Positions 12,181 to 57,969 of a stretch of DNA of 64,000 nt are shown here, piece after piece. The translations under genes were made by a program, and so were the position numbers. The notes below the pieces were generated by a model, which saw only the letters and a program-made list of their open reading frames with translations, was not told the DNA's origin and did no database searches. The DNA is from an uncultured Bacilli bacterium (lineage in GTDB: Bacteria; Bacillota_I; Bacilli_A; RF39; UBA660): contig CAKOLK010000001.1 of NCBI GenBank assembly GCA_934096275.1, forward strand, positions 15,876 through 79,875, written 5' to 3'. The first letter of the stretch is position 1. Every line of letters begins with the position of its first letter.

Positions 12181-13243
12181 TCAATCAGTAAGTTGATATG
12201 GTTGTTCCGAAGATCCATTTCCACTTGAAATCTTCACGTTAAATGAAAGACTTAGGACTGGGCGCACGGCATACTCGTTGTATTCGACGTTGCCGAAGTA
12301 GACGCTACCGTCATCATTAACAAGGAAAGCGAGGCGATCAGCTTCCGAAACCTGTGGAAGTAACCATGTAGTTACACTTTTATCTAACCAATTATTTGCT
12401 GTTTTACAATTTACAGAAGAAATATACTTATATAAACTGTTTGTACATTCTTTTGAAGCCGCATATCCATAGTCACTCGCATACATTAATGCTATTTTTT
12501 TATTTGCATCATTTTGTATTATTGGATTTGTTACATAATAATATCCTGTTCTATTTGCTTCATTTTTTCTTTCGTATTGCCACATTACATCCGATATCAC
12601 ACTTGCTTCTTTGTATCCTCCAAGATAATATTTTGTTGTTCCAATCATGTTTTTTGCATCACTTGTTAATGTATTATAATAATCATTATTTAAATATGTA
12701 TTTAATGTTCCTGTTACCCAATTGTTATACGTTTCAGTTGTTGTATCTTCTGTTTTATTCCAATATTTATTTCCTATTGAAGTATCTTTTATTATTTTAA
12801 TTCTATTTTCTACATTGCCATCTGTATCCTCGGTTGGTATTATTCCTATTATTCTCCATACTTCATTATTAAAAGTTACATAATTGTTTACATTTCCTCC
12901 ACGATATCTATACTCTGTTGCAAATCTTTCATCCACTTGAAGTGTATCATCTATTTCATGGGTTACTTTTTCTAATCCTCCTGTTCCTACATTAGATTCC
13001 GCAAAGTATAAGGCATTGTCTTTAGCTTTAACATATATTTTGATAGTATTCTTTGATTCTATACTACTACTCCATTTTGCATATGATGTATTTGTATAAT
13101 TATAAGAAATAATACCCGTTAATAAAAGTACAAAAATACCTATTAATGATAATAGATATTTATTATACTCTTTTACATCTTTAAATAAAGGGTTTATCTT
13201 ATAAGTATTTTGCCCCCCCCCCATACGAATATTTGTTTTCCAT
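12181..13243 (-). CDS. poly-G-gated surface-protein family, member 1 (short class); phase-OFF from the SD-proximal start in this assembly
   Basis: Signal anchor YLLSLIGIFVLLLTGIISYNY+TNTSYAKWSSS, then a ~280-aa domain shared with members 2-4 (TEYRYRGG..NNYVTFNNE.WRIIGIIPTEDT; KKIALMYASDYGYAAS; VRPVLSLS). GGAGG (13251-13255) lies 7 nt before the ATG at 13243. From that ATG the G10 tract reads MENKYSYGGGAKYL-stop. The long ORF is in frame only with ATG 13257 (inside the SD) or with the TATG at the tract edge. Confidence 0.8.
13213..13222 (-). repeat. homopolymeric G10 tract (C10 on the plus strand) in codons 8+ of member 1
   Basis: Counted by hand: tg-cccccccccc-atacg. Confidence 0.85.
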
Positions 13244-13273
13244 AATTTTACCTCCATAGTTTCTTATAAGTTA

Positions 13274-13367
13274 ATTCTATAACAAAAAAAGCACTTTTTC
13301 AAGTACTATTTTTCTCATTGATTCTTCTACTCAACAAACTTGACACGCAAACAATTATTGCTATATT
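13274..13367. promoter_or_regulatory. back-to-back divergent promoters (member 1 on minus; small-ORF cassette A on plus)
   Basis: Minus strand: TTGAAA (13297-13302), 17 nt, TAGAAT (13274-13279), with the near-palindrome GTACTTGAAAAAGTGC (13291-13306) over the -35. Plus strand: TTGACA (13340-13345), 16 nt, TATATT (13362-13367). Confidence 0.6.
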
Positions 13368-13373
13368 TATATT

Positions 13374-13606
13374 GCATGTTCGTTATGGGCGTCGGCTTCG
13401 CTACTTTTTCAAGAAAGCGAGGTGATGTATAATGAGTAGAAAGAACGACTTGATTTGCATCTTGCTTATTATCATCCTTTTCTTATTAATTATCATCTAT
13501 AGATTAATCTAAGTGTTTTAATTAATAAAAAATGCGACGTCTCTCTAATATGGGAAACGTCGCTTCAAAACACAATTGAAGCTGACGTTCATAGCAAACG
13601 TGCTTC
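13374..13606 (+). other. predicted structured small mRNA, type I toxin-like (cassette A)
   Basis: The 5' element (13374-13399) starts at the predicted +1. It can pair with the 3' element (13578-13606) over 26 positions: 20 Watson-Crick, 5 G-U, 1 mismatch. CUUCGCU (13396-13402) pairs with AGCGAGG (13416-13422), covering the SD. A central hairpin lies at 13534-13563. Confidence 0.55.
13432..13512 (+). CDS. 26-aa hydrophobic peptide MSRKNDLICILLIIILFLLIIIYRLI (candidate type I toxin)
   Basis: GAGGTGA lies 6 nt before the ATG. The peptide has a charged N-terminus plus one TM-length hydrophobic run. It is conserved with cassette B. Confidence 0.55.
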   Translation: MSRKNDLICILLIIILFLLIIIYRLI

Positions 13607-13609
13607 GTT
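13522..13609 (-). ncRNA. predicted antisense sRNA (candidate antitoxin), cassette A
   Basis: Minus-strand promoter TTGTAT (13639-13644), 17 nt, TATATT (13616-13621), conserved in cassettes A-C. The transcript would cover the 3' element and end at hairpin GCGACGTTTCCC..GAGAGACGTCGC followed by AUUUUUUAUU. Confidence 0.45.
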
Positions 13610-13664
13610 ATATATAATATACTACTTTTTGTAGTTTTATACAAGTGTTTTACTTGTTTTTTTG

Positions 13665-15305: not shown

Positions 15306-15316
15306 AAAACTCCTCC

Positions 15317-16993: not shown

Positions 16994-17028
16994 ATTTTTT
17001 CCTCCAAAAAAAGACTTACAATGTAAGT

Positions 17029-17583: not shown

Positions 17584-17689
17584 ATTATCCCTCCTAGGAT
17601 AATTATATAAGTAAAATATAATTTATTCAACATAAATCTTAAAAAAGTATAAAAAACTTTACATAGTACATAATATAAATGGTGATATT

Positions 17690-17902: not shown

Positions 17903-17909
17903 TATTTTT

Positions 17910-18707: not shown

Positions 18708-18723
18708 AATACTTATCCCCTTT

Positions 18724-19587: not shown

Positions 19588-19658
19588 ATTACCAACCCCT
19601 TAAAAGTAGTCTAATTATAGCATAAAGCGAACAAAAAGTCAAGAAAAAAGAACTAAGT

Positions 19659-21017: not shown

Positions 21018-21039
21018 AATATTTTCCTCCCTTGTAATA

Positions 21040-25039: not shown

Positions 25040-25215
25040 AATTCCTCCTTAATACTTTATAAGTTAATTATAGCATAAATAAAAACAAAAAAATAGATAT
25101 TTCTATCTATTAATATATTTTATAAATGTTTTACTTGCGAAAGTCAAACAAACAGATTTATTAGTAGCCAAATATATATCTATATTTGGTGTGTTTTTAT
25201 TAATTTCTTTTGATT

Positions 25216-26352: not shown

Positions 26353-26429
26353 TGGTAGCGACGGAGGGGATCGAACCCCCGACCTTCCGGGTATGAACCG
26401 GACGCTCTAGCCAGCTGAGCTACATCGCC
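26353..26429 (-). tRNA. tRNA-Met (anticodon CAT), elongator-like; tRNA-Ile2 (lysidine) not excluded
   Basis: Reverse complement GGCGATGTAGCTCAGCTGGCTAGAGCGTCCGGTTCATACCCGGAAGGTCGGGGGTTCGATCCCCTCCGTCGCTACCA. It folds as a cloverleaf (D stem GCTC/GAGC, anticodon stem TCCGG/CCGGA, T loop TTCGATC) with an encoded CCA. It lacks the three G:C pairs of initiator tRNA. Confidence 0.9.
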
Positions 26430-36462: not shown

Positions 36463-36463
36463 G

Positions 36464-37465
36464 TTACCACTCTCTTATCTTTACTATTTTCTTTACTAGT
36501 ACTATGTATATTATATATATTAGAATTATTAAAACTAATATTATATTACCAAGTGGCTCTTTAATAAGGGGTATAAAGTAAGTAGGATCCATAAAATAAA
36601 TAAGTACAAATATTATAAATGGAATAGCAACAAGTACTTTAAATACAAAATTAGATAGTGCAAGGGTTGAGTTCATTTCATCTTTTATTCTTTTTCTTTC
36701 TATAAAGCTTCTTTCAATCGAAGAAAATATCTTAGTAATTTTACCACCAGTTTCATTTAGTATTATTAAAGATGATGCCATATATTTTACTTCTTCTAAT
36801 TTAACACGAGAAGCAAATCTATCAAACACTACCTCTAATTCCAAACCATAAGTTAAATCAATTAATATTTTTTTAAATTCATTACTAATTGGACCTTCTA
36901 ATTCTGTTGATACTAACTCTACTGCTTGCATTATACTTCTTCCAGATTTAAAAGCATTATTCATAATAATAACTGCTTTTAAAAAATCTTGTTCTATTCT
37001 TTTTTCTTCTTTCTTTTCTCTTATTTTTAAAAACACATCAAGAATAAAGAAACCAAATAAGAATGATATTAGTATTTGAAAAAACGAAAACATTTTAAAC
37101 TTTAATATGTTAGATATTATACTTAAAAGTACTGCAAGTATTGAGAATAATATCTTTTTAGATATAAAATCCATACTAGTTTGTTTATGGGTATCGTCTA
37201 CCACTACGAATTTTTCATATTTTTTGCTATAGTCATTACAAACTTTACTTTTACTAATAGTTTTACTAATTGATTTAATAACTGAGTAATATAAGTTTTG
37301 TAGTTTTTCTATAAATGATATTGGTTTATCTGATAAAGCTGTAATAGAAAAACTAGATATTCTTTTTTCTTTTGATATTGAATTAAGTATTTTTAAAGCA
37401 AGTAAAAAGACAATAATTATTACTAAAATTATTATAAATTGTAAGGTAATATATAATTTTTCCAT
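36464..37465 (-). CDS. tadB: Tad/type II secretion F-family inner-membrane protein (TadB-like)
   Basis: GspF-like cytoplasmic domain (AFKSGRSIMQAVELVSTELEGPISNEFKKIL) between TM segments. Confidence 0.7.
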   Translation of the reverse strand: MEKLYITLQFIIILVIIIVFLLALKILNSISKEKRISSFSITALSDKPISFIEKLQNLYYSVIKSISKTISKSKVCNDYSKKYEKFVVVDDTHKQTSMDFISKKILFSILAVLLSIISNILKFKMFSFFQILISFLFGFFILDVFLKIREKKEEKRIEQDFLKAVIIMNNAFKSGRSIMQAVELVSTELEGPISNEFKKILIDLTYGLELEVVFDRFASRVKLEEVKYMASSLIILNETGGKITKIFSSIERSFIERKRIKDEMNSTLALSNFVFKVLVAIPFIIFVLIYFMDPTYFIPLIKEPLGNIILVLIILIYIIYIVLVKKIVKIREW

Positions 37466-37484
37466 AGTTATTGTCTCCTTTCTA

Positions 37485-38822
37485 TTACATTAATTTTTCA
37501 AATATATCATCTACATCTGTTATACCTTTGCTTTTGATCTTACTATATACTTTAGGAACATACTTGTATAAAACAAATGAACCATTTACTTCACCACTTT
37601 CAGTAAGACCTTTTTGTTTGAATGTAAATATTTCTTTTAAATTAATTCTATCATCTTTTAGTCCACATACTTCACATATTGAAGTAATCTTTCTTTTACC
37701 ATCTGATAATCTTTCTATATTAACTACTATATCAATAGCATTTTCTATATATTCTCTTATTGCTAGTACTGGTATTTGAATACCTGCCATAAGTACCATT
37801 GTTTCAAGTCTATTTAATGCATCTGATGCTCCATTAGCATGTAGTGTTGATAAAGAACCTTCATGTCCTGTATTCATTGCTTGTAACATGTCAAATGCTT
37901 CTTTACCACGTACTTCTCCGACGATTATACGATCAGGTCTCATACGAAGAGAATTTATTACTAAATCTCTTATTGTTACTTCTCCTTCTTTTTCATAATT
38001 CATTGTTCTAGTCTCTAAAGAAATAACATGATTTTGTTTTAGTTTTAACTCTGCTGCATCTTCAATTGTAATAATTCTTTCGTCTCCCGGTATGAATGAT
38101 GATAAAACATTAAGTACTGTAGTTTTACCAGAACCAGTTCCACCACATACTAATATATTAAGTTTAGCTCTTACACAAGCATCTAAGAATCTTGCCATAT
38201 ATGGTGTAAATGTACCATTTCTAATTAAGTCATCCGCAGTAGATAAGTTTTCTTTAAACTTTCTTATAGTAAGCACTGGCCCATTAAGAGCAAGCGGTGG
38301 TATTACAGCATTAATTCTAGATCCATCACTAAGTCTTGAGTCAACCATAGGATTAGCTATATCTATAGTTCTTCCAAGTGGTTGAATCATTCTTTGAATT
38401 GTTCTTATAATATGTTCATCATTTATAAAAGATACTGATTCATCCTTAATAATCTTACCATCTATTTCAATATAGATTTCATCCGGTGCATTAACCATTA
38501 TTTCAGTAATACTTTTATCATCTAATAATTCAGTAATTGGACCATATCCATTTATTTCATTTTCAATTAAATTAAATATATGGTTTCTTTCTAAATTAGT
38601 TAAATCATAACCTTCGAGTGATGTATTAATCTCATCATTAATGTATTCTTCAAGATACTTACTATCTGATAAGTCATTATCTATTATATTTTGTATTATT
38701 TTATTTCTTAAAGAATCTAATAAGTTTTTATCTTTAAAAACACTGTAATCACTAACTTCAGAATTAATGTAATTACTTTTTTTATTTTCTATTTCAAATA
38801 AATCAGAAAGTGTTTTTCTCAT
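37485..38822 (-). CDS. cpaF: CpaF/TadA family pilus-assembly ATPase
   Basis: Walker A VCGGTGSGKTT, Asp box ERIITIEDAAEL, His box ...TGHEGSLSTLHAN. Confidence 0.9.
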   Translation of the reverse strand: MRKTLSDLFEIENKKSNYINSEVSDYSVFKDKNLLDSLRNKIIQNIIDNDLSDSKYLEEYINDEINTSLEGYDLTNLERNHIFNLIENEINGYGPITELLDDKSITEIMVNAPDEIYIEIDGKIIKDESVSFINDEHIIRTIQRMIQPLGRTIDIANPMVDSRLSDGSRINAVIPPLALNGPVLTIRKFKENLSTADDLIRNGTFTPYMARFLDACVRAKLNILVCGGTGSGKTTVLNVLSSFIPGDERIITIEDAAELKLKQNHVISLETRTMNYEKEGEVTIRDLVINSLRMRPDRIIVGEVRGKEAFDMLQAMNTGHEGSLSTLHANGASDALNRLETMVLMAGIQIPVLAIREYIENAIDIVVNIERLSDGKRKITSICEVCGLKDDRINLKEIFTFKQKGLTESGEVNGSFVLYKYVPKVYSKIKSKGITDVDDIFEKLM

Positions 38823-39565
38823 TTAGACACCTCCTCAATAAGTTTTTTTGCAATCAATTCATAATGTTTATTATCTTTTCTATTATTTAATAAAATAGGT
38901 ATTTGTCCTGATGATATTATTTTATCTATTTTACTAATATGAAGTGTTTTAGGTATAGTAAAATCTATATTAGATTTAATAATAGTTCTCATGTCATAAG
39001 AATTATAATAGTTTCTACCTAGTATTGATTCATTTAATACAGTAGAATAATTAGTATAATTAGCATCTTTTAATATTGACACAAAAGTTCTAGTATTTTT
39101 AAGTGAATATAAATCATTACTAAATAGGACTAATATACTATCAGAATTATCAAATAAAATAACATTAGTTTCATTTAAAACATGAGTAGTATCTATAAGA
39201 ATAGCATCATATTTATATAAAACACTATCTAAGATTAAAGGAATATATTTAGAATCAATCTTATTAGCTTGTCTAGGATCTTTTGGAGCAGAAATTATAT
39301 CAATATTATCATTATATTTATAGATATAGTCTTCAACTTTTTCATACCTATTATTAGATAAATCAAGTACTAAATTAAAAACTGTTTTATCACATTTTAA
39401 GTTTAAAGAAAGAGCAATATCTCCCCCAAATAAGTCAAAATCAATAATTAAAACTTTATATCCAAGTAAATGGTAAGATCCTGCTAAATTAAGAGTAGTA
39501 ATAGTTTTTCCTGCACCACCCGTTGTGGAAGTAATCGATATAATTTTTCCTTTATCCTTTTTCAT
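38819..39565 (-). CDS. ParA/MinD-like ATPase of Tad loci (TadZ/CpaE-like)
   Basis: Deviant Walker A ISITSTTGGAGKTITTLNLA. It lies directly upstream of cpaF with a 4-nt overlap. Confidence 0.7.
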   Translation of the reverse strand: MKKDKGKIISITSTTGGAGKTITTLNLAGSYHLLGYKVLIIDFDLFGGDIALSLNLKCDKTVFNLVLDLSNNRYEKVEDYIYKYNDNIDIISAPKDPRQANKIDSKYIPLILDSVLYKYDAILIDTTHVLNETNVILFDNSDSILVLFSNDLYSLKNTRTFVSILKDANYTNYSTVLNESILGRNYYNSYDMRTIIKSNIDFTIPKTLHISKIDKIISSGQIPILLNNRKDNKHYELIAKKLIEEVSK

Positions 39566-39567
39566 AA

Positions 39568-39927
39568 TTAACCCTTCTTTATTCTTATTTTATTGTTTGA
39601 ATCAACATATCCTGTATAAACAGAATCTAAGTTGTATTTTTTAATTCCTATAATAGAACCAAATATTGAATCCACTTCTTTTTTTAGATGTACTTCACTA
39701 TTTGTAATATTTATTATTTTAATATCGGCATCATTATCTAATATTAGTTGTTCTATTTCTATTTTGTCTTTATTCATTAAAACATAATTCATTGCAATTG
39801 AGCTAAGATTATCAAGTTTATTATCATTTATTTTAATATAACAAGTATCAAATACATAAGCAAATATTGCAATAAATACTGGTATTAAAAAGACAAATAA
39901 TACTAATGACTGACCTTTATTGTTCAT
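39568..39927 (-). CDS. TadE/TadG-like pseudopilin
   Basis: MNNKGQSLVLFVFLIPVFIAIFAYVFD: a Flp-type leader ending in G, then a hydrophobic helix. Confidence 0.6.
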   Translation of the reverse strand: MNNKGQSLVLFVFLIPVFIAIFAYVFDTCYIKINDNKLDNLSSIAMNYVLMNKDKIEIEQLILDNDADIKIINITNSEVHLKKEVDSIFGSIIGIKKYNLDSVYTGYVDSNNKIRIKKG

Positions 39928-40264
39928 TAAATAACACCCTCTTGGTAGTTATCTTATATGGATTTTCAAAAAATGATGATGCGAATGGTGTAATAAGATT
40001 TACTTTTTTAGTAAGTACTATTTCAAGTTTATCTCCTTGATAATTATACTTCATCGTAGTATCAGAATCTAATAATTTATTTATCTCATCATAACTTTTT
40101 CCATTTTGTTGATAAATAGATACCTCATCCATTACTCCCTCAAGACTGTTTTTGTTATAAAAAACAAAAGCAAAGTCTATTACTATGAATAGTATCATAA
40201 TAATAATTGGAAGTATAATTACAAATTCCACCAAAGCTTGACCTTTATTATTTTTTTTCAACAC
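39917..40264 (-). CDS. TadE-like pseudopilin
   Basis: ..KKNNKGQALVEFVIILPIIIMILFIVIDFAFVF. The start is placed at GTG/TTG after GGAGAAGG, which gives a leader like its neighbours. The ORF-track ATG at 40306 would overlap flp by 59 nt. Confidence 0.6.
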   Translation of the reverse strand: MLKKNNKGQALVEFVIILPIIIMILFIVIDFAFVFYNKNSLEGVMDEVSIYQQNGKSYDEINKLLDSDTTMKYNYQGDKLEIVLTKKVNLITPFASSFFENPYKITTKRVLFNEQ

Positions 40265-40451
40265 AATAGCCTTCTCCAGCTTTAGCACCTTTTTGATACT
40301 CTTCACCCACTAAAGCACAAGATGATTTAGTAATAGAATCTTTTAAATAACCTCCTAAAAATGTTACTAAAGATATAGCAAGTACACTTATTAATGCAAT
40401 TATTAAAACATATTCTACTAAAGCTTGACCTTTATTATTTAGTCTCATCAT
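40248..40451 (-). CDS. flp: Flp-family type IVb pilin
   Basis: MMRLNNKG|QALVEYVLIIALISVLAI: the G/xxxxEY Flp processing motif. 67 aa. Confidence 0.8.
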   Translation of the reverse strand: MMRLNNKGQALVEYVLIIALISVLAISLVTFLGGYLKDSITKSSCALVGEEYQKGAKAGEGYCVEKK

Positions 40452-40540
40452 ACATCACCTATTTTCCTACATTAATTTTATTATTTTTTTAGGCTATTGT
40501 CAAGATGTAAAAAATGATATAGAATAAAAATGGTGATAAG

Positions 40541-40849
40541 ATGTACTTAGTAAATAACAATAATAAGTTAAAGATAAATAAAATAAATAAATTAATTGGT
40601 TTAATGTTCAGAAAAGAACCTATTAAAGAAGGATATATACTTTATAATTGCAATGCCATTCATACTTTTTTTATGAGACAAAATATTGATGTAATTATGA
40701 TTGATAAAAATAATAAAATAGTTTTAATAAAAGAAAATGTTAAAAAAAATAAAATAATAATTAAAAAAGAAGGAATACATACTTTAGAATTACCATTAGG
40801 TATATCTAAAGAATATAAAGTTAATGACATAATAAAAATAATAGATTAG
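40541..40849 (+). CDS. DUF192 domain protein
   Basis: ...GLMFRKEP..EGYIL..CNAIHTFFMRQNIDVIMIDKNNKIV.......HTLELPLG pattern. Confidence 0.6.
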   Translation: MYLVNNNNKLKINKINKLIGLMFRKEPIKEGYILYNCNAIHTFFMRQNIDVIMIDKNNKIVLIKENVKKNKIIIKKEGIHTLELPLGISKEYKVNDIIKIID

Positions 40850-40866: not shown

Positions 40867-41959
40867 TTAAATCGATAGTTGATATGGATCTTCATATGTT
40901 CCAATGCCTGAAGATATTCTTACATTTGAAAAGAGAGTTAGAACTGGTAAAATGGCAAGTTCTCTTTTTCTGACATCGCCCCCATTACCAATACCACCAG
41001 TAGGACCCAAGTGAAAAACAACTCCATTACCACCGGCACATGGTGAAAGCATCCATGTAACCTGGCTCTTATCTAACCAATTATTTGGTGTTTTACAATT
41101 AATAGAAGTATCGTAGCCACTTAAACTGCCTGAGCATTCTTTTGATGCAGCATATCCATAATCACTTACATACATTATTGCTATTTTCTTACTTGCATCA
41201 TTTTGCATTATTGGGTTTGGTTTATAATAATACGCGCTTTCATATGCATTATTCTTTCTTTCATATTGCCACATCTCATTTGCATTTGCATATATATTTA
41301 TATATCCACCAAGATAATATTTTGTTGTTCCTATCATGTTTTTAGCATCATTAGTTAATGTATTATAATAATCGTTGTTTAAATATGTGTTTAATGTTGC
41401 TCCTGTCCAGTCGTTAAATTTTTTACCACTGTCATCACATTTTTCATAATCACTAGTTGTGCAATTGTTCCAAAAATATTCTCCAAGTGAATTATTTCTT
41501 ATTATTTTAAATCTATTTTCTACATTACCATTTGTGTCTTCAGTTGGTATTATTCCTATTATTCTCCATAATTCATTATTAAATGTCACGTAGTTATTTA
41601 CTACTGAGTCTCCTCCACGATATCTATATTCTGTTTTAAATCTTTCATCTACTTGTAATGTACTATCTATTTCATGTGTAATTTCTTCAAGCCCACCAAT
41701 TCCTACATTATCTTTTGCAAACGCTAAAGCATCTTTTTCAGTCTTGACACTAAGTTTTAATATATTTTTTGATTCCACACTACTACTCCATTTTGCATAT
41801 GATGTGTTTGTATAATTATAAGAAATAATACCACTAAGTAATAGCACAAAAATACCTATTAATGATAATAGATATTTATTATATTCCTTTATATCTTTAA
41901 ATAAGGGGTTTATCTTTCTAGTATTTTGCCCCCCCCCCATACGAATATTTGTTTTTCAT
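40867..41959 (-). CDS. poly-G-gated surface-protein family, member 3 (short class); phase-OFF from the SD-proximal start
   Basis: GGAGG (41967-41971), 7 nt, ATG at 41959, then MKNKYSY plus G10 gives ...GGGAKY-stop. The ORF-track protein starts at the TATG on the tract edge (41940). Confidence 0.8.
41929..41938 (-). repeat. homopolymeric G10 tract of member 3
   Basis: Hand count: gcc + cccccccc + at gives 10 C. Confidence 0.85.
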
Positions 41960-41989
41960 AGTCTTACCTCCATAGTTTCTTATAAGTTA

Positions 41990-42185
41990 ATTCTATAACA
42001 AATATATTTCTTTTTCAAGTAAAATTTTTTCAATTTTTTGCATTTTTATATAAACAAGACTTTTGATACAAGTTTTCTTATTCAAAAATAAAAATTGCCC
42101 TAAGGCAAATCTTATTTTTGTAATCATTTTCTCTTTCAAAACTTAAAATTGGTCGTTTGACAAGTATTTTTCTTTAGTTTATAGT
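41990..42185. promoter_or_regulatory. divergent promoters (member 3 / cassette C) separated by an extra ~140-bp AT-rich spacer
   Basis: Minus strand: TTGAAA (42013-42018), 17 nt, TAGAAT (41990-41995); the palindrome is degenerate here. Plus strand: TTGACA (42157-42162), 17 nt, TATAGT (42180-42185). Confidence 0.55.
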
Positions 42186-42192: not shown

Positions 42193-42400
42193 GCACGTAT
42201 CTTTGGGCGCCGACTTCATTATCTTTTTAAAAGAAATGGGGTGATAGTTATGAAAGATAAGATTTTCTAATTTTAGCACTGCTTGTGATTATTTATTTAT
42301 TATTAAAGTAATTTAAAATAAATGCGACGTCTCTCTGATATAGGGAAACGTCGCATCGCTGAAAATAAACATCGAAGTCGGCGTTCAAGGAACGTGCTTC
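42193..42400 (+). other. predicted structured RNA, cassette C (the ORF has decayed)
   Basis: 5' element at 42193-42217 and 3' element at 42374-42400, with ends perfectly complementary (GCACGU.../...CGCCGACUUC). SD-region stem CUUCAUU (42214-42220) / AAUGGGG (42235-42241). Central hairpin at 42324-42354. Confidence 0.5.
42250..42270 (+). pseudogene. truncated remnant of the small hydrophobic ORF (MKDKIF-stop)
   Basis: The ATG after GGGGTGA is at the homologous position to cassettes A and B, but a stop follows six codons later. Other frames give no TM-like peptide. Confidence 0.5.
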
Positions 42401-42403
42401 TTT
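42312..42403 (-). ncRNA. predicted antisense sRNA, cassette C
   Basis: Minus-strand promoter TTGTAT (42433-42438), 17 nt, TATATT (42410-42415). The hairpin is followed by AUUUAUUUU on the minus strand. Confidence 0.4.
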
Positions 42404-42448
42404 ATATATAATATACTACTTTTAGTAGTTTTATACAAGTAATTTATA

Positions 42449-43603
42449 CTATTTATTTAACTTAGTACCTTTTAAGTTATCAAATCTTTCAAGTAAGTTA
42501 CCAGGTATAGCTTTTTGTATTTGTTCATCATCTTTTTTGTTATCTACTGCGATTGCTATTAAATCATCAAATAATTCAGTTTGATTCTTTTTCTTAGCTT
42601 TCCATAAGTATGAAGATAATGATCCTGGTATTGTATTTATTTCATTTACATAAATCTTTTTAGTCTTATCATTAATTAAAAAATCAATTCTTGCAACTCC
42701 ATTTCCATCTAATGCTTTAAATGTATTTATAGCATATTCTTTCATATCTTCGATCATTTCTTTTGATATAATTGGTTTAGTTTTGTTATCTTTTTCTTGT
42801 GTTTTAGAAAAATTGTTTATATATTTTTCTTTAAATGAATAAAAATCATCATTAGAGTTTATCTCTTCAATTTCAGATACTTCAACTTTTTTATAGTTAC
42901 CAAGTACACTTATATTTATTTCCTTTACGTCATTTACTTTTTCTTCCACTAAAATCTTCTTATCATATTTAATAGTATTTTTTACCTTTTTAAAGAAATC
43001 TTTTTCATCTTCCGCAATTTCTATTCCAATACTAGAACCTAGACTAGATGGTTTAATAAATACTGGGAACTTTAATTTAGATAATCTTTCTTGAACTAAT
43101 TTTTTATCACTTAATTCATAATTATAAAACCAAGTATAATTAACAACAGGTATATTATTAACACTCAATAATTCCTTTTGAATAACTTTATCTTGTCCTA
43201 AAGCTGCTCCAAGAACACTAGGTCCAGCATATGGTACTCCAAGCATATTTAAATATCCTTGTAAAGAACCATCTTCTAAGTATGCTCCATGTCCGATTGG
43301 TACAACTATATCAATTACACATAAGTTCTTCTTAAACATACCTAGTTTTTGTAACACAAACGATCTATCTACTTTAACTAATGCAACCTTTTTAGCATAT
43401 CTTTTTACTAAGTCAATATCTCTAAAGTTAATTATACTTTTTAAGTGTTCTCCAGTATACCAAGTATTATCTTTATCTATATAGATTGGTACTATTTTAT
43501 ACTTATTTTCATCAGCATATCCCATTGCCTCAATAGCAGAAATAATGCTTATTTCATGTTCAACACTTTTTCCTCCGAATATTACTCCTATATTTAATCT
43601 CAT
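42449..43603 (-). CDS. ddl: D-alanine--D-alanine ligase
   Basis: MRLNIGVIFGGKSVEHEISIISA, ...GEDGSLQG-like EDGSLQGYLNMLGVPY, and a C-terminal ATP-grasp (ARIDFL....K.YVNEINTIPG). Confidence 0.9.
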   Translation of the reverse strand: MRLNIGVIFGGKSVEHEISIISAIEAMGYADENKYKIVPIYIDKDNTWYTGEHLKSIINFRDIDLVKRYAKKVALVKVDRSFVLQKLGMFKKNLCVIDIVVPIGHGAYLEDGSLQGYLNMLGVPYAGPSVLGAALGQDKVIQKELLSVNNIPVVNYTWFYNYELSDKKLVQERLSKLKFPVFIKPSSLGSSIGIEIAEDEKDFFKKVKNTIKYDKKILVEEKVNDVKEINISVLGNYKKVEVSEIEEINSNDDFYSFKEKYINNFSKTQEKDNKTKPIISKEMIEDMKEYAINTFKALDGNGVARIDFLINDKTKKIYVNEINTIPGSLSSYLWKAKKKNQTELFDDLIAIAVDNKKDDEQIQKAIPGNLLERFDNLKGTKLNK

Positions 43604-44534: not shown

Positions 44535-45597
44535 TTAATCTATTGATAATTGGTATGGTTCAGAACTTGTTCCTACTCCTCCAGATATTTTTGCATTTGA
44601 TGATAAAGTTAATGTTGGGCGTATTGCATACTTATAGACACCAACATCAAAATTACTGACATTACCTGTTGAAGAAATATAAAACGCATAAATTGAATAA
44701 CTTGAATACTGTGAAAGCAACCACGTATCTTCACTTTTGTCTATCCAATTGTTTGGTGTTTTACAATTTGTATCTTGATTATATTCAGATATGTCGCTTG
44801 TACATTTCTTTGATGCAGCATATCCATAATCACTTATATACATTAGTGCTATCTTTTTAGAAGCTTCATTTTGCATTACTGGATTTGTATCATAATAGTA
44901 ATTACTTTTATTTGCCTCATTTTTTCTTTCATATTGCCACATTACATCTGATGTCATTTTTGAATCTTTATATCCTCCGAGATAGTATTTTGTTGTTCCT
45001 ATCATACTTTTTGCATTACTTGATAAGGTATTATAATATGTAGTATTTAAATATGTATTTAGTGTTGCTATTAACCAGTTATTAGAATTATCAGTGTTAT
45101 TACGTGTGCTATTCCAATAAAAATTTCCAATAGATTCATCTTTTATTATTTTAAATCTATATTCTACATTATCAGATGTATCTTCAGTTGGTATTATTCC
45201 TACCATTCTCCATAACTCATTATTAAATGTCACGTAGTTATTTACATTCCCTCCGCGATATCTATATTCTGTTTTAAATTTTTCATCTACTTGTAATGTA
45301 TTATCTATTTCATGTGTAATTTCTTCAAGTCCACCAATTCCTACATTATCTTTTGTAAACTCTAAAGCACTCTTCCCAGTTTTAATATGTATTTTGATAA
45401 TATTTTTTGATTCAGTACTGCTACTCCATTTTGCATATGATGTATTTGTATAATTATAAGATATTATTCCTGAAAGTAATAACACAAAAATACCTATTAA
45501 TGATAATAGATATTTATTATACTCTTTTATATCTTTAAATAAGGGGTTTATCTTATAAGTATTTTGCCCCCCCCCCATACGAATATTTGTTTTCCAT
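44535..45597 (-). CDS. poly-G-gated surface-protein family, member 4 (short class); phase-OFF from the SD-proximal start
   Basis: GGAGG (45605-45609), 7 nt, ATG at 45597, then MENKYSY plus G10 gives ...GGGAKYL-stop. The long ORF is in frame only with ATG 45611 (inside the SD) or the TATG. Confidence 0.8.
45567..45576 (-). repeat. homopolymeric G10 tract of member 4
   Basis: Hand count: gcccc + cccccc gives 10 C. Confidence 0.85.
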
Positions 45598-45626
45598 AGT
45601 TTTACCTCCATACTTTCTATAATCTC

Positions 45627-45659
45627 ATTTTACAACAAAAAAAGCACTTTTTCAAGTAC
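45627..45659 (-). promoter_or_regulatory. member 4 promoter with the conserved near-palindrome; no small-ORF cassette at this locus
   Basis: TTGAAA (45650-45655), 17 nt, TAAAAT (45627-45632). GTACTTGAAAAAGTGC lies at 45644-45659. The mnmA stop follows 10 nt away. Confidence 0.55.
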
Positions 45660-45668
45660 CTTTACATT

Positions 45669-49241: not shown

Positions 49242-49261
49242 TTTATCATTCCTTTCAATAA

Positions 49262-49455
49262 AAAAACAGTTATATCCCAAAGGGACGAATAACTGTTAAA
49301 TCCGCGGTACCACCCAATTTATTATATAAAATATAATCTCTTTATTTATAACGGCAATCAACCGGCTTGTTCTACTTAATTCCTCAAGCACTCATGGTGT
49401 CTTTCATATTTAATTTTATACTAGTTCTCACCAAACACTAACTCTCTTAAATAAA
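49262..49455 (-). promoter_or_regulatory. T-box riboswitch leader of aspS (specifier GAC)
   Basis: The minus strand carries AGAGAG/GGUGAGA stem I elements and GAAAGACAC, which contains the GAC (Asp) specifier followed by A. The T-box core is AAUUGGGUGGUACCGCGG, and the terminator is AACAGUUAU...AUAACUGUU+UUUU. Confidence 0.8.
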
Positions 49456-49506
49456 CTTAAATATTACTTTTCCAATCAACGTTTATGTATAGATTATAGA
49501 ATATTT

Positions 49507-51838
49507 TTAGTTTGTTGTCAAGACTGCACGAGTTGAGTAGTCACTGTGCGCTTCACCATCGCTGGTGTTGAAGAAGAACGCGCCGGCGTAATCACCATTG
49601 TAATAGATCCCACCACGGAAGAGCCAAGGGATGAAATTGTTAGAGAAAACAGCTTGATCTGAATACCATGATTTAGTGGTTGAAGATGTTGGTGACATTT
49701 CAATTGTGGCGTCTCCTAACTTTCCTCTTGTATATTCTGTTTTACTTGTTCCATAACTATATTTATCATAATATTTCTTGTTTGGGAATGCATATGTTCC
49801 TGTAAATGATGTTTTATCATTTCCTAAATATCCTGTAAATGCTGAATTTTTATTACTAGATGTTGAATATCCACTCATCTGTTGTCCATTACTATGTACC
49901 ATATTACCCATCACGTATTCACATGTTCCACCACTCATGTCATATACTCCATATACATTTCCTGTTGTTGATGCGCTTTGTCCTAAAGTTGTTGTGTATC
50001 CATTACATGTTGAACCCCTACTTGCTGAACCTTCACTTTGTGGTCCACATCCTGTTGTATTTGTATTTGCACTATTTATTGCTATTTCTTTATTTATTCC
50101 ATATTTACTATGTGATAGATATGTTACTGCTCCCCATTCCATATTCTTCATCATATGAGTTTCAGCGGTTGTTGCAATACCATATTGGTTGCCACTTTCT
50201 CTCATCTTTTGGATTCCATTAAAGAATGTTCCTACTTGTGCTCCTCTCCATGATGTTACGTTTGGTTTTATTTGAGGTCTTATTGTTTGTAGGTTGCAGT
50301 CTGTACCTATTGCTACATAGTTAGTAGGTGTACATGTAGTATCACTTGATACTTCAAACTTTCCTACCCATATTCCTGTTAATCCTTCCCCTGTTTCTCT
50401 TACATTGTTATCATTTTTATCCCACCAGAATGCTGGATGCGTATAGGTTGATGTTCCTGCTTTTAATGATCCATTTGTACTATCTGTACATGTTTCTGAT
50501 GTACTACTAGTTCCAGTTACTGCGTCTACACATTTTATTGTACCACTACTATTTGTACCGCTTTCAAATTTTATTTTGATTTCTTCTGGTGTATTAGTGT
50601 TTAAATATGTATATGTATATCTTGGTATCCACACCCACATTGTATTGATACTTAGCATTGGTATCTCTGTTCCCGCATCTGCACTTACTATATCACTTCT
50701 TTTGCATACTGAACTACTGCAATTTTTTGTAGTTCCATCTTTTAGAGTTAACTTAGTCACAGGCACACCTTCTTTAGTATATTTATCAGCACTTGTTACG
50801 CTATGATTGCTAACTGAATTAATTTTATACATGGTACTACAAGTAGTGTTGTCTGTACAATGATATTTATCAATAACATCAGTATCAACATCATCATAAG
50901 ATGTATTTGTGAGTGTGTATAATCCTGTATCTTCATTAAATGTGTAAGATTTTCCAAACATGTAATTAGGTGGATAGAATTGTCCTATGGAATACATAGT
51001 ATAATCACTACCATCATAAGAATCTATAAAAAATGCTTTGTTAGAGCCAAATATATTAAACATGATTATGGCATATCCATATTCATCAATGTAATCGCTT
51101 AGTTTCATGCCATTGTTATCATATAAGTCTGAAAGAGATCCTTCTATTACTCCACTGCTGAAATCATAGTCTTCTTCCCATGTGTAATCATCATAGGACA
51201 ATAAGTTTACTTGACCATCCAATTGAGCCTCAGTTATGATAAGAGAACCGCTTGGACTTGATATATTATATATTCCAAATGCCATGTTATCAGTTTTATA
51301 ATATACCATTAAATTAACATAATCATATTCTGTGTTATTTATTGTAACTGGAGCATTCCAACCAAATTCAAGACTTGAAGATAAATTAAGCGAAATATTT
51401 TTATCAACTTTTTCTTTATACTTACTACTTAGCGCATCTGTTACTGTTACTGCGTTAGCCCACATTTTATTATTGTAATCATACCACTTATTAGACGCGT
51501 TTGAATTGGTTGCGTCTGCTTTTCTCCATACATTGTTATTACTATCATAATATACTGGTATCATATTACTTGTTAATACTGGTTTATTTGCACCGCTTGT
51601 ATCAAGGTTTACGTTGTTGCTTTTTACATAAAGTTTCAATACATTTTTAGATTCTACACTACTACTCCACTTTGCATATGATGTATTTGTATAATTGTAA
51701 GATATTATTCCCGAAAGTAATAGCACAAAAATACCTATTAATGATAATAGATATTTATTATACTCTTTTACGTCTTTAAATAAGGGATTTATTTTATAAG
51801 ATTTTTGCCCCCCCCCCGAACGAATTATTGTTTGTCAT
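49507..51838 (-). CDS. poly-G-gated surface-protein family, member 5 (long class); unambiguously phase-OFF in this assembly
   Basis: GGAGG (51846-51850), 7 nt, ATG at 51838, then MTNNNSF plus G10 gives ...GGGAKIL-stop. The main frame (..QKSYKINPLFKDVKEYNKYLLSLIGIFVLLLSGIIS..) is closed upstream by TGA and has no ATG/GTG/TTG before the anchor. The tract edge here is TTC-G, so no TATG exists. Confidence 0.8.
51808..51817 (-). repeat. homopolymeric G10 tract of member 5
   Basis: Hand count: gccc + ccccccc + g gives 10 C. Confidence 0.85.
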
Positions 51839-51874
51839 AGTTTTGCCTCCGTTTTGACTATTTTGTCTGGTTTT

Positions 51875-51957
51875 ATTTTACAACAAAAAAAGCACTTTTT
51901 CAAGTACTATTTCTTCTACTCAATAAACTTAACACATAAACAATTATTTGTTATTAT
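51875..51957. promoter_or_regulatory. back-to-back divergent promoters (member 5 / cassette D)
   Basis: Minus strand: TTGAAA (51898-51903), 17 nt, TAAAAT (51875-51880), with GTACTTGAAAAAGTGC at 51892-51907. Plus strand: TTAACA (51929-51934), 17 nt, TATTAT (51952-51957). Confidence 0.55.
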
Positions 51958-51964
51958 TATTTTA

Positions 51965-52222
51965 GGAGATGTGTTAATTGTTGGTACTCCTCTGTTCTAC
52001 TGTTTCTTAAGGGGGCAAGTAAACGGGAGTGATGTCTATGGTGAAAGGATTTAATTATGTACAGTTTGATTGCATTTTGTGTAGTTTTATTGTTACTAAT
52101 TTTGTCAATAAAACATAATGACTAGAAAAGAAGTACCAACTCAACATGAGTAGGTACTTCTTTTCTTAAAATATTCACAACATAGAACAGAGACAGTACT
52201 AATCGTCAAATTAGCATATCTC
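51965..52222 (+). other. predicted structured small mRNA, type I toxin-like (cassette D, divergent version)
   Basis: The 5' element (51965-51996) can pair with the 3' element (52186-52222) in three helices of 14, 9 and 7 bp. All 4 non-Watson-Crick pairs are G-U in the plus sense. Hairpin GAAAAGAAGUACC...GGUACUUCUUUUC lies at 52125-52165. Confidence 0.5.
52057..52125 (+). CDS. 22-aa hydrophobic peptide MYSLIAFCVVLLLLILSIKHND (candidate type I toxin, divergent)
   Basis: AAAGGA lies 7 nt before the ATG. TTGATTGCATTTTG aligns with TTGATTTGCATCTTG of cassette A apart from a 1-nt indel. An alternative 26-aa frame from ATG 52038 is much less hydrophobic. Confidence 0.4.
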   Translation: MYSLIAFCVVLLLLILSIKHND

Positions 52223-52444
52223 TTTTTTTAGTATATTCTTTTTTATATACTAAATGTGTTCGTGAATAAATTATATCTTATTTTTAATAAAATATCAATA
52301 TCACTTCAGTGATTTGTGGTATTTTACTTCAGTATTTTGTGATAATTTATTATTTCAGAAAATATATTAATTATTACACTTCTCTGTTTTGTTATTTTTT
52401 CCTTTAACAAAACTAATGAAATTATTGCATTTATCATTAGTTTT

Positions 52445-53040
52445 GTCAACAACCCTGCACTCAAAGTGCAGGGCTTGTGTTTACTGCTGAAAGCAGTTTA
52501 TATGACTAAAAGTCAATTTGTTATTTTAAATGTTTTTTCTATATCATCTGTTTGATCTTCTATATATGCCTTTATTATTTCTTGTGTCACTGTTCCTACA
52601 CTTCTACAAAAATACCCTGGACTCCATAAATATTGTCCCCAATACTTTCTTTTTAATACATTGAACTCTTCTTGCAATATCTTTGAACTTCTTCCCTTTA
52701 GATATTGAACCAGTTTTGATGGCGCTATTGTCGGCGGACAACTTACTAACAAATGCACATGATTTCTTGTTATATTTCCTCGTATAATAGTTATCCCTCG
52801 GGCAACACATCCCTGCATTAATAATACTCTTAATCTTTGTGCTACTTTACCATTTAATACTTCATATCTATATTTTGTTGTCCAAACTATATGATATTGT
52901 ATATCATATTGTGTATGACTTCCTTTTCTCATCCAAATCCCCTGCCCTTGGCTAACTATTATACTACAAGACAATTAATTTGTCAGCCAGTTCTAAAAGA
53001 ATTTACGCGCTAAATCACGTGGCCTGGTACCAGGGGTTTA
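52445..53040 (-). mobile_element. IS200/IS605-family element (tnpA only), boundaries approximate
   Basis: A Y1/HUH transposase gene flanked by subterminal hairpins: CCCTGCACT-caa-AGTGCAGGG (52453-52473), ACTGCT-gaa-AGCAGT (52483-52497), and palindrome CCTGGTACCAGG (53023-53034). It is locally GC-richer than its surroundings. Confidence 0.6.
52513..52932 (-). CDS. tnpA: IS200/IS605 family transposase TnpA (Y1 HUH)
   Basis: YDIQYHIVWTTKYRY, HUH motif NHVHLLV, and catalytic-Tyr region WSPGYFCRSVG. The start is at MRKGSHT.... Confidence 0.88.
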   Translation of the reverse strand: MRKGSHTQYDIQYHIVWTTKYRYEVLNGKVAQRLRVLLMQGCVARGITIIRGNITRNHVHLLVSCPPTIAPSKLVQYLKGRSSKILQEEFNVLKRKYWGQYLWSPGYFCRSVGTVTQEIIKAYIEDQTDDIEKTFKITN

Positions 53041-53065
53041 ACATAGTCAAGAAAGTATTGGAATA

Positions 53066-53104
53066 TATAAAAAGTACCAGTTTAACATGGGCTGGCACTT
53101 ATTT
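53066..53104 (-). terminator. rho-independent terminator of dnaE
   Basis: On the minus strand: AAGUGCCAG-cccauguuaaa-CUGGUACUU + UUUAUAUAUU. Confidence 0.55.
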
Positions 53105-53127
53105 TAGTAAAATATCAATATTTTATG

Positions 53128-56049: not shown

Positions 56050-56148
56050 AAATATTACCTCCTTTAATATATATTTTATCATAAAAAGTTGACTTATTGG
56101 AATAAAATATGATAGAATTATAGTGCTTATTAAAAAGGAGGGATTAAT

Positions 56149-56319
56149 GTGGCTAAAAATTTATCAAATAGAAAACCTAATATGAAGAATCTTCGTCCAA
56201 ATTGTTTAAAAAAGACTATTAAAAAACAAGGACTAAATTTACAAGTAGTAACTTTAGATAACGGAGAAAAAGTAAGAGTTTCAGTAAAAGAAGCTAGAAC
56301 AATGAAGAAAGCTATTTAA
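56149..56319 (+). CDS. 56-aa basic protein, possibly ribosomal protein L28-like (not in the ORF track)
   Basis: GGAGGG lies 6 nt before the GTG. Sequence (M)AKNLSNRKPNMKNLRPNCLKKTIKKQGLNLQVVTLDNGEKVRVSVKEARTMKKAI. The ..NLQ.V.....G..VRVSVK.ART.KK portion resembles bL28. A terminator follows. Confidence 0.4.
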   Translation: MAKNLSNRKPNMKNLRPNCLKKTIKKQGLNLQVVTLDNGEKVRVSVKEARTMKKAI

Positions 56320-56326
56320 TTAGTAA

Positions 56327-56364
56327 AGAGATATCAAGTTGCAAATGATATCTCTTTTATTTTA
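56327..56364. terminator. bidirectional terminator
   Basis: AGAGATATC-aagttgcaaat-GATATCTCT + TTTTATTTT. Confidence 0.6.
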
Positions 56365-56373
56365 TTATTTTTA

Positions 56374-57969
56374 TTATTTTAACATTGATAATACTGAACG
56401 TGAAGCACGAGTGCTAATTGAAGAACCATCGCTAAAGTAAAAAGCGAATATACCGGCATAAGTTGTATGGCTATAAAGACCACCACGAACAAAAAATGAA
56501 TAAGTATCATATGGATAATATGTATAATCTTTATACCAACCACCATTTGAAAGTGAATTATTTTCTTGAATTTCTTGCGTTGAATCTCCAATTAGCCCTG
56601 AGCCATTTGTTGTTTTTTCTGAGTAATAATTATAATGATTATAATACTTTGATAGTGGATAGGTAGAAGTCCAGTTTTCAGCTTTACCAACTCCGAAACT
56701 ACTTGAACTTCCACTGCTCATTGTATAGTCCCATGCTCCTCCACTCATATCGTATATTCCTGTAATATTACCTGTTGTTGATGCAATTTTGTTCATATCT
56801 CTTGTTGTGCTTTTTGTGTTTGTATTATACTCAAGCAAATATCCATCGTATGTATAAAAACCATATGTATTATATTGTGTTGTTGATGTTTGATCTTCAT
56901 ATGTCTTATTTATTTCTGTTGATCCTCCAACATCTCCTCCACTTCTTCCAGTATAACATCCTCTTGAATTATTGATATTTATTTCTTTATTTATTCCGTA
57001 TTTAGAATGTGATAAATATGCTATTGCTCCCCATTCTATATTTTTGATCATGTGTATATCTATATCGTTTGTGTCTCCTGTTAGACTTCCATTCCAATTA
57101 AATGTTGTGCTATTGCTTTGTTCAAACCCATATATATTATTTGAGGCCTCCATTTGTCTTATGTCTTTAAACATGTATGATATTGTTTTATATCTTAGGG
57201 ATTGTACATCTGGTTTTATTATTATTATTGAATCTTCTGTAGAAGTTTTTGTTGGTATTGTTGTTGCACTATTTTCAAACTTGCCTACCCATATTCCTGT
57301 TAGTTCTTGGTCTCCAAAAGTAAATGCTGGATGAGTGCAAGTAGTAGAATTAGCTTCTAAATTAGCATTATTAACATATGTATTGAAACATTTTGCTGTA
57401 CCAGTGCTTTCTGTGCCACTTTCAAACTTTATATTTATATCTTGAGGTTTTATTGACGGAAAGATAGTATATTTATATCTTGGTATCCATACCCACATTG
57501 TATTTATATCATCCATTTTTATTTCTGTTCCTATATCTGCATTCAGATATTTTGTTCTGTTAGTAGAGCTTACTGTTACGGCGTTTGCCCACATCTTATT
57601 ATCATAATCGTACCATTGATACTTTTTACTGCTATTACTAACATCAGCTTTCTTCCATGATGAGCTTTCAGTGTCATAATATATTGGTATCATATTACTT
57701 GCAAGAAATGGCTTATTGGCTCCACTTGTATCTAAATTTGATTTTATATATAATCTTATAGTTTTGTTTGATTCAATACTACTACTCCATTTTGCATATG
57801 AGGTGTTCGTGTAATTATAAGAAATAATACCACTAAGTAATAACACAAAAATACCTATTAGTGATAATAGATATTTATTACAATCCTTTATGTCTTTAAA
57901 TAGGAGGGCTACTTTGCTAGTATCCCTTCCAAGCGAATATTTGTTTATTATATTTTTCACAGTCATCAA
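56374..57969 (-). CDS. surface-protein family member 6 (long class) with no poly-G tract and no shared promoter cassette
   Basis: MMTVKNIINKYSLGRDTSKVALLFKDIKDCNKYLLSLIGIFVLLLSGIISYNYTNTSYAKWSSS.... CTT GGA AGG GAT ACT AGC occupies the place of the tract. The body is homologous to member 5 (ANKP.L.SNMIP.YYD; MWVWIPRY.YT; THPAF; LTGIWVGKFE; MKN.EWGA..YLSHSKYGINKEI). Confidence 0.85.
   Translation of the reverse strand: MMTVKNIINKYSLGRDTSKVALLFKDIKDCNKYLLSLIGIFVLLLSGIISYNYTNTSYAKWSSSIESNKTIRLYIKSNLDTSGANKPFLASNMIPIYYDTESSSWKKADVSNSSKKYQWYDYDNKMWANAVTVSSTNRTKYLNADIGTEIKMDDINTMWVWIPRYKYTIFPSIKPQDINIKFESGTESTGTAKCFNTYVNNANLEANSTTCTHPAFTFGDQELTGIWVGKFENSATTIPTKTSTEDSIIIIKPDVQSLRYKTISYMFKDIRQMEASNNIYGFEQSNSTTFNWNGSLTGDTNDIDIHMIKNIEWGAIAYLSHSKYGINKEININNSRGCYTGRSGGDVGGSTEINKTYEDQTSTTQYNTYGFYTYDGYLLEYNTNTKSTTRDMNKIASTTGNITGIYDMSGGAWDYTMSSGSSSSFGVGKAENWTSTYPLSKYYNHYNYYSEKTTNGSGLIGDSTQEIQENNSLSNGGWYKDYTYYPYDTYSFFVRGGLYSHTTYAGIFAFYFSDGSSISTRASRSVLSMLK

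Follow-up and report, generated by a model that had tools for sequence, protein, structure and literature searches.

We describe a family of six paralogous genes in a 64,000-nucleotide (nt) stretch of DNA (the window) from an uncultured Bacilli bacterium of the RF39 lineage (contig CAKOLK010000001.1, positions 15,876 to 79,875). Five of the six carry a poly-G tract at their 5’ ends and very probably form a multi-locus contingency repertoire that is switched by slipped-strand phase variation. The initial annotation of this DNA had proposed such a repertoire, and the proposal gained support from a strict frame rule (nine or twelve Gs, G9 or G12), from 34.3 kb of near-identical sequence in which only the tracts carry indels, from G9 orthologues in related strains and from public proteins in ON, OFF and locked forms.

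According to the proposed mechanism, each of the five dispersed genes would have its own promoter, Shine-Dalgarno (SD) sequence, ATG and leader, with the poly-G tract inside the first ~10 codons, and slipped-strand mispairing during replication would add or remove a G. At G9 or G12, translation from the ATG behind the SD would read through into a protein of 350–780 amino acids (aa) with a single transmembrane helix and, outside the cell, a body that binds ligands; G10 or G11 would instead end it after 13–17 codons. Because the loci would switch independently, a clonal population would consist of cells showing different subsets of the repertoire. The majority state in this assembly would be OFF at the five loci, and the tract-less copy 6 would always be ON. 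We infer replication slippage as the cause, together with the reversibility and rate of switching, and we propose surface exposure and a role as adhesins or in host or phage interaction for the encoded proteins.

Poly-G tracts within a shared, proposed switch cassette

All-against-all identities bore out the earlier view of six minus-strand paralogues in a short and a long class. Copies 1, 3 and 4 are 66–70% identical over their full length, the ~280-aa C-domain of copy 2 is 58–74% identical to the short-class members, and copies 5 and 6 have another common body (36% identity over 450 aa). The anchor NKYLLSLIGIFVLLL(S/T)GIISYNYTNTSYAKWSSS is common to copies 1, 3, 4, 5 and 6, and copy 6 is identical to the public protein P0121. 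The core-gene surroundings noted initially were recovered from the Pfam context, with PolC, LemA/DUF2207, ThiF, a Tad/Flp locus, Ddl, MnmA, AspS and DnaE as neighbours.

The GC content of the window is 22–32%, and G runs are far in excess of chance: 21 windows of seven Gs were observed in the 64 kb versus 0.26 expected from shuffles. Outside the five poly-G tracts, the 64-kb window holds no G/C run of six or more, which extends the initial observation of no further run of seven or more. All five tracts lie on the minus strand, four of them G10 and one G11. Alignment of the 5’ regions of copies 1–5 upheld the proposed common cassette, which begins with a promoter-like TTGAAA, 17 nt and TA(G/A)AAT, followed by a short 5’ untranslated region (UTR), the SD and the ATG. 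Its 7-codon leader has two variable codons, AAC AA(A/T) (T/A)AT TCG and one variable codon, after which come the G run and CAAAA. In every one of these copies, the ATG lies 7 nt after GGAGG and the tract begins 18 nt downstream of the ATG. There are six occurrences of the 12-mer AACAAWWATTCG in the window, all of them at the six family members, versus 0.04 expected. The features are as follows.

Copy 1: 12181–13243, minus strand; short class, 353 aa at G9; leader, membrane anchor and DUF6273 body; OFF here (G10).
Copy 1 cassette: 13213–13307, minus strand; hairpin and T run 13307–13284, -35 box 13302–13297, -10 box 13279–13274, SD 13255–13251, ATG 13243, 12-mer 13237–13226, G10 13222–13213.
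Copy 2: 32177–33870, minus strand; 563 aa at G9; different anchor, dockerin-like segment and DUF6273 body; OFF here (G11).
Copy 2 cassette: 33839–33949, minus strand; -35 box 33944–33939, -10 box 33921–33916, SD 33882–33878, ATG 33870, 12-mer 33864–33853, G11 33849–33839.
Copy 3: 40867–41959, minus strand; short class, 363 aa at G9; OFF here (G10).
Copy 3 cassette: 41929–42018, minus strand; promoter-like sequence 42018–41990, SD 41971–41967, ATG 41959, 12-mer 41953–41942, G10 41938–41929.
Copy 4: 44535–45597, minus strand; short class, 353 aa at G9; OFF here (G10).
Copy 4 cassette: 45567–45660, minus strand; promoter-like sequence 45655–45627, SD 45609–45605, ATG 45597, 12-mer 45591–45580, G10 45576–45567.
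Copy 5: 49507–51838, minus strand; long class, 776 aa at G9; anchor of copies 1, 3, 4 and 6, inserted region, body FGE/C-lectin-like; OFF here (G10).
Copy 5 cassette: 51808–51908, minus strand; promoter-like sequence 51903–51875, SD 51850–51846, ATG 51838, 12-mer 51832–51821, G10 51817–51808.
Copy 6: 56374–57969, minus strand; long class, 530 aa, constitutively in frame; start TTG 57969 or ATG 57966.
Copy 6 5’ end: 12-mer 57945–57934; GGAAGGGAT replaces the G tract; upstream region unrelated to those of copies 1–5.

The -35 box lies within a hairpin followed by a T run in copies 1, 2, 4 and 5 (dG -9 kcal/mol, z about -3), which looks like a predicted terminator that would insulate the cassette; the copy 3 cassette is without this hairpin. 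Around the tract and the 12-mer, no RNA structure beyond chance was predicted in the 5’ mRNA (z > 0). Two other ATGs, which gene callers use at G10, were considered as starts and rejected: one upstream, within ATGGAGG, and one internal, at the tract. Both are unconserved (followed by a stop in copies 2 and 3, missing in copy 5 and in other lineages), and neither has an SD. A repeat match at 25044–25083 proved to be merely the 5’ UTR of an unrelated DUF1653 gene.

Tract length sets the reading frame

We replaced each tract by G8 to G13 in silico. In all five genes, the ATG behind the SD enters the long body at G9 and G12 only, giving products of 353–776 aa, and at G8, G10, G11 and G13 translation ends after 13–17 codons. 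Since the assembly holds G10 or G11, all five tract-bearing genes are OFF here. Open frames of 350–776 codons nevertheless stand intact behind every out-of-frame tract, which argues that the genes are not pseudogenes.

Among the N-termini of 120 public homologues were ON (G9, G12), OFF and locked forms. The G9-equivalent frame is kept in copy 6 and in public variants whose tracts are interrupted (GGEKNT, MGRGQNT), and this identifies the ancestral ON frame. Gene callers had placed artefactual starts that depend on the tract state (P0003, P0004, P0013, P0040 and others), giving N-termini such as MGGGQNT..., MEVKLWKTNIRMGGG... and the truncated MLLLSGIIS...; database entries of the family are therefore systematically mis-started.

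Tract lengths differ between closely related strains

A near-identical strain is represented by contig ERZ27287251:k141_480215, of which two loci (L111 and L001) align to 34,324 bp of the window. Only two indels separate the sequences over this length, both of a single G, in the tracts of copy 1 and copy 2. The 21-kb part has no substitution, and its one gap is the copy 1 tract, which is G9 on k141_480215 and there encodes exactly the reconstructed 353-aa protein P0001, with the frame restored. The one gap in the 13-kb part is the copy 2 tract (G10 there, G11 in the window). Copies 3 and 4 are G10 in both, and the bodies of copies 1, 3 and 4 are identical. The 13-kb part also contains nine substitutions, all within 313 bp (33548–33860) at the 5’ end of copy 2; their pattern is mosaic relative to other alleles, and no single matching allele was found as a donor. 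Such a cluster points to a patch of recombination or gene conversion, or to a consensus of mixed strains.

In-frame alleles of copies 2–4 were found in other strains, ~95% identical. The copy 2 orthologue is G9 (ON) in one of them (L109) and the copy 3 orthologue is G9 (ON) in another (L110); in the closest reference metagenome-assembled genome (MAG), CAKOQD (L091), the copy 4 orthologue is G9 (ON) and copies 2 and 3 are G10. Thus every one of copies 1–4 is G9 in some related strain, and copy 2 was seen as G9, G10 and G11 in three strains. At the level of sequence, the tracts combine an overlong repeat, a toggled product and polymorphism between near-identical genomes, the features of simple sequence repeat contingency loci.

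Could these length differences be sequencing or assembly artefacts, with true tracts of fixed length (for example all G9) in ordinary, constitutive genes? All data are metagenome assemblies, the changes are of single bases in runs of 9–11 Gs, and some of the MAGs are long-read assemblies. Another assembly (L108) matches the window exactly, down to the G10 of copy 5, which shows reproducibility but possibly stems from the same data. On the other hand, short-read consensus is usually reliable at runs of about 10 nt, and within the single contig k141_480215 copies 1 and 2 differ from the window while copies 3 and 4 are identical. Lengths from G8 to G13 also recur across 96 tracts from many studies and assemblers, and interrupted tracts exist, as is expected from the evolution of truly unstable repeats. 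We consider an artefact very unlikely.

Copies are also lost and degraded. In L110 (2573–3853 and 7090–7400), copy 5 and its IS200 neighbour are replaced by an AAA_14/DUF4143 gene and copy 4 is cut down to the promoter and a C-terminal remnant, so family members are gained and lost at fixed chromosomal sites; a copy in L066 has internal stops. Such remnants, and the out-of-frame state of all five genes here, would also be expected if the genes were pseudogenes in decay, in which a fragile homopolymer had shifted the frame and no adaptive switching took place. Yet there is no second disabling mutation in the 350–776 codons of any of the five copies, copies 1–4 have in-frame alleles in close relatives, and dozens of genes in several diverged lineages have kept the tract and the 12-mer. 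Decay of this kind is thus extremely improbable.

Predicted folds of the protein bodies

All six proteins have a short N-terminal tail, a hydrophobic helix and a large body. The sequences SYAKWSSS and GTYAIWTS resemble SipW-cognate signal peptides; the SipW-cognate (TasA-type) signal-peptide model of NCBIfam gave no match at E<=1. The N_methyl prepilin motif (G|FTLxE) had no match among the window proteins, and a cassette-bearing protein of another lineage (L036) scores 25.3 bits with N_methyl PF07963 (cut-off 21.2). Elsewhere, in further lineages than that of the window, the module stands ahead of a prepilin and leucine-rich repeat protein of the BspA type and ahead of a DUF285 protein.

For the long class, the AlphaFold2 model of copy 6 (predicted local distance difference test, pLDDT, 79.6; predicted template modelling score 0.82) has a helix at residues 31–51 and then a globular body. 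Foldseek matched this model best to TaqVP, the variable protein of a diversity-generating retroelement (DGR; E 4e-8, prob 1.0), with further matches to Mtd (E 0.014), EgtB and, more weakly, TvpA (E 0.39). Pfam FGE-sulfatase matches 8 of 50 long-class homologues. The predicted structure of the long-class body is a C-type-lectin/FGE-sulfatase fold. The sequences of both bodies found no match in the PDB.

Among the short-class members, 28 of 35 match Pfam DUF6273. This domain has been described as a C-lectin-like, DGR-mutated receptor-binding domain of gut phage proteins (PMC10743442) and as the domain at the N-terminus of an IgA peptidase from gut bacteria (PMC12402451); a C-lectin fold of the short class would follow from the Pfam match and the former study. 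A Foldseek search with a poor short-class model returned nothing significant (top, T. ramosa IgA peptidase, E 0.2). A common fold of the two C-terminal bodies was examined with hhalign and rejected, as the N-terminal module alone aligned. In copy 2, a double calcium-binding stretch at residues 142–198 resembles dockerin type I (E 1.5e-4, slightly short of the Pfam cut-off). The tail, the helix and the C-lectin, DUF6273 and dockerin-like parts, like the prepilin, leucine-rich repeat and DUF285 proteins of other lineages, are typical of extracellular binding modules, and the cell surface is their predicted location.

Orthologues diverge faster than their flanks, in patches, which suggests recombination or diversifying selection. 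Diversification by a DGR was considered and, for the window, rejected. The Pfam-annotated neighbours in the window include no reverse transcriptase, and the window holds no template repeat, the only repeats of the bodies being the paralogues themselves. Substitutions between orthologues show no adenine specificity and involve all four bases, and the bodies of copies 1, 3 and 4 are identical in the near-identical strain.

Distribution of the module and the conserved 12-mer

The module was scanned for by pattern in one genome per species, and the counts per genome are lower bounds. It was found in uncultured gut MAGs labelled Bacilli, Tenericutes or Mycoplasma, from Hadza, Brazilian, rabbit and other samples, one of which is a circular genome of 1.31 Mb. 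Conservation of the cassette in related genomes had been put forward initially as a test of the proposal, and it is conserved there; across lineages, the 12-mer and the tract persisted and the promoter and SD did not. The initial count of six genes holds for the window, and the family is much larger elsewhere, with at least 18, 11, 11, 10 and 7 cassettes in related genomes. In total, reference MAGs gave at least 69 cassettes and human gut metagenome assemblies 27, with lengths from G8 to G13.

Tract lengths among the 96 listed tracts (69 + 27): G8, 6; G9, 18; G10, 57; G11, 11; G12, 2; G13, 2.

The in-frame rule (n = 0 mod 3) holds in most cassettes, and ~21% are ON. Several observations weigh against phase variation. 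The mode of the distribution is the OFF length G10 (57/96), and the low share of in-frame lengths could mean that the DNA frame does not simply determine expression. Copies 1–4 have an internal ATG (tcgtATGgggg) that is in frame at G10, although it is without an SD and is absent from copy 5 and other lineages. The tract lengths are consensus calls of metagenome assemblies, in which homopolymers are error-prone, and the near-identical strains may stem from related samples. The AlphaFold2 model of the short class reached a pLDDT of 51 from an alignment of 35 sequences, and no signal or pilin family model in NCBIfam or Pfam matched the window proteins, whose surface location is a prediction. As for the G10 mode, it lies one step from ON and may reflect selection for mostly-OFF repertoires or a mutational equilibrium.

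The same mode would fit a recoding site, in place of a heritable switch or alongside one, at which slippage of RNA polymerase or a +1 frameshift of the ribosome on the run of Gs gives constitutive low expression from the predominant G10 allele as the functional state. G10 is by far the commonest length in both sets (42/69 and 15/27 of the listed tracts), in-frame lengths make up 21% rather than the 33% of three equal phases, and transcriptional slippage is favoured by long homopolymers. The 12-mer beside the tract is conserved at the level of nucleotides, as a cis-acting stimulator would be, and the 5’ mRNA is unstructured. A dedicated site, however, would be expected to keep one length, and G8, G9, G11, G12 and G13 alleles occur at orthologous loci; the locked variants hold the frame equivalent to G9, not G10; and RNA-structure prediction found no downstream stimulatory structure. 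Leaky slippage is moreover compatible with switching at the DNA level and does not replace it. We regard recoding as an unlikely explanation of the tracts, and transcriptional or ribosomal slippage may add leakiness to phase variation and could relate to the G10 mode.

By eye, 76 of the 77 runs of at least eight Gs in 569 kb of related AT-rich loci follow the 12-mer. Its consensus is AACAA(A/T)(T/A)ATTCG, and AACAAATATTCG followed by 3 nt and Gn is kept across lineages that differ in promoter, SD, length of the leader and downstream codons. Most genes read the 12-mer as N-K-Y-S, and those of the CAZEAD lineage, L090 and L029 read it as T-N-I-R. In L029 and L036, one and the same prepilin-type protein has the 12-mer in different frames, so the 12-mer is conserved at the nucleotide level. 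The searches required part of the motif, and the apparent strength of conservation is therefore biased upward; that the conservation is real is argued by the occurrences in the window and by the fact that, of 16 allowed variants, one is strictly used. A cis-acting site, a slippage context and a recombination handle are candidates for its basis.

Because the 12-mer is kept while promoter, SD, leader, downstream sequence and reading frame change, we tentatively raise the possibility that this element, exactly 3 nt upstream of the tract, is a functional cis-acting DNA or RNA recognition site. On this rather speculative proposal, the 12-mer and the tract would make up a portable switch module that moves between unrelated surface-protein genes and species, and a dedicated factor might set the slippage rate, the tract length (the G10 mode) or expression. 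A Chloroflexi repeat that shares the 11-mer and a G run was rejected as a further instance and is probably a coincidence, being inverted relative to the gene and of a variant that is not enriched among chance hits (3/~22 versus 1.4 expected). Our search of viral contigs for the module returned only an unrelated phage gene.

Relation to known phase-variable systems

The proposed switch would work as do those of Neisseria, Campylobacter and the Mollicutes. In Neisseria, the opa genes (CTCTT repeats) and pilC (poly-G) carry the repeat in the region coding for the signal peptide. They are dispersed multi-copy surface adhesin families with a leader tract in each copy and independent translational switching, as is proposed for the family described here, and pilC likewise uses a G run. 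They differ in being Gram-negative and in encoding unrelated proteins (the beta-barrel Opa and the pilus tip protein PilC), and the opa repeat is a pentamer. To our knowledge, no conserved flanking 12-mer module shared across species accompanies opa or pilC.

Campylobacter jejuni has a small AT-rich genome with a few dozen G8–G13 tracts, mostly at the 5’ ends of surface-structure genes and polymorphic between and within strains. The small AT-rich genome, the length polymorphism between strains and G8–G13 tracts that are otherwise absent from the genome are points in common with the present loci. Its poly-G/C tracts, however, lie in unrelated genes, mostly for glycosylation or modification enzymes, with no common cassette, whereas here one paralogous N-terminal module and the 12-mer accompany nearly every tract.

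Among the Mollicutes, Mycoplasma hominis Vaa has a poly-A tract in its 5’ coding region and M. hyorhinis Vlp has promoter poly-A. Their variable surface proteins share with the present family a small-genome, low-GC Firmicute-derived lineage and, as proposed here, a multigene surface family and homopolymer slippage; some related MAGs are labelled Mycoplasma or Tenericutes, and one cassette-bearing protein has the Mycoplasma domain DUF285. In contrast to the Mollicutes, the tracts here are poly-G and not poly-A, the proteins are not lipoproteins and have C-lectin-type bodies, and peptidoglycan genes are present (Ddl, Mur ligase, PASTA kinase). DGR variable proteins (TaqVP, Mtd, TvpA and the DUF6273 ‘tentaclins’) resemble the family in the ligand-binding fold of the long class, the Pfam domain of the short class and the patchy differences among paralogues and orthologues, but diversity here would come from a paralogue repertoire and on/off switching and not from retro-mutagenesis.

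We found no published description of poly-G phase variation in this lineage or protein family. The mechanism is well known in principle; the lineage and the portable module are new, and the initial statement that the combination had not been described holds for the lineage and gene family and not for the principle. The loci extend homopolymer phase variation, verified in sequence, to an uncultured small-genome gut lineage of Bacilli in which the genes would switch. Since nearly all loci obey the G9/G12 rule, the tract state can be read directly from metagenomes, and the family could act as a natural reporter of the surface proteins expressed in vivo, across hosts and time. A paralogue repertoire with independent on/off switches would be an alternative to DGRs for varying a C-lectin-type fold, and repeat-based switches would gain a new component if the 12-mer is functional. 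Mis-started and truncated gene calls in the family also matter for the annotation of MAGs.

Neighbouring elements and other homopolymer loci

Tiny hydrophobic open reading frames (ORFs) lie divergent from copies 1, 2 and 5 on the plus strand, at 13432–13512, 34076–34156 and 52057–52125. They encode MSRKNDLICILLIIILFLLIIIYRLI, MRKKDLLISVLLIVILLLLIIILVIL and MYSLIAFCVVLLLLILSIKHND, respectively, with a GAGGTGA-type SD ahead, within intergenic blocks (13258–13664, 33885–34316 and 51853–52512) that share ~400 nt of homology and GC-rich hairpins (GCGACGT...ACGTCGC). Part of this block is also present upstream of copy 3 (42309–42455). The block looks like a type I toxin-antitoxin module duplicated along with the cassette; the three blocks have no Rfam match.

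An IS200-type Y1 transposase gene (52513–52974, minus strand) adjoins copy 5. Between copies 2 and 3 lies a Tad/Flp pilus locus (34317–40849) that encodes Flp, TadE, a CpaE-like ATPase, CpaF and two TadB/C proteins, with YebC and ThiF; as the module also stands ahead of a prepilin-type protein in another lineage, it may conceivably have a functional link to a pilus or secretion system. The only Rfam matches at gathering score in the window are a T-box leader (49278–49488, minus strand) upstream of aspS and a tRNA gene (26356–26429, minus strand), both of which are ordinary.

Two other sets of homopolymer loci came to light during the searches. Chloroflexota MAGs (L004, L005, L006, L014, L020, L021, L024, L038, L084, L096, L102 and L105) contain a multi-copy element whose poly-C of 10–26 nt lies in the 5’ part of the coding sequence of genes that encode signal-peptide/FN3-like proteins (MIEILHNIT-(Pro)n-IFVLISRCCFLASLSLLPLQA...). 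Its opposite strand reads TTAGAACAAATATTC+Gn, an 11-mer of the gut Bacilli module, inverted relative to the gene. These loci may be phase-variable; the assemblies look long-read, which makes the lengths uncertain. In human gut samples, a phage gene of 45–50% GC (IMG/VR contig L160, 2590–2612; also L120, L124 and L143) carries a 5’ poly-G of ~12 to 33 nt that follows MTEQKTSNKNS. Its N-terminus is tail-fibre-like (LTYWVKAAPEASLQAVETEV...), and it is a possible phase-variable receptor-binding gene.

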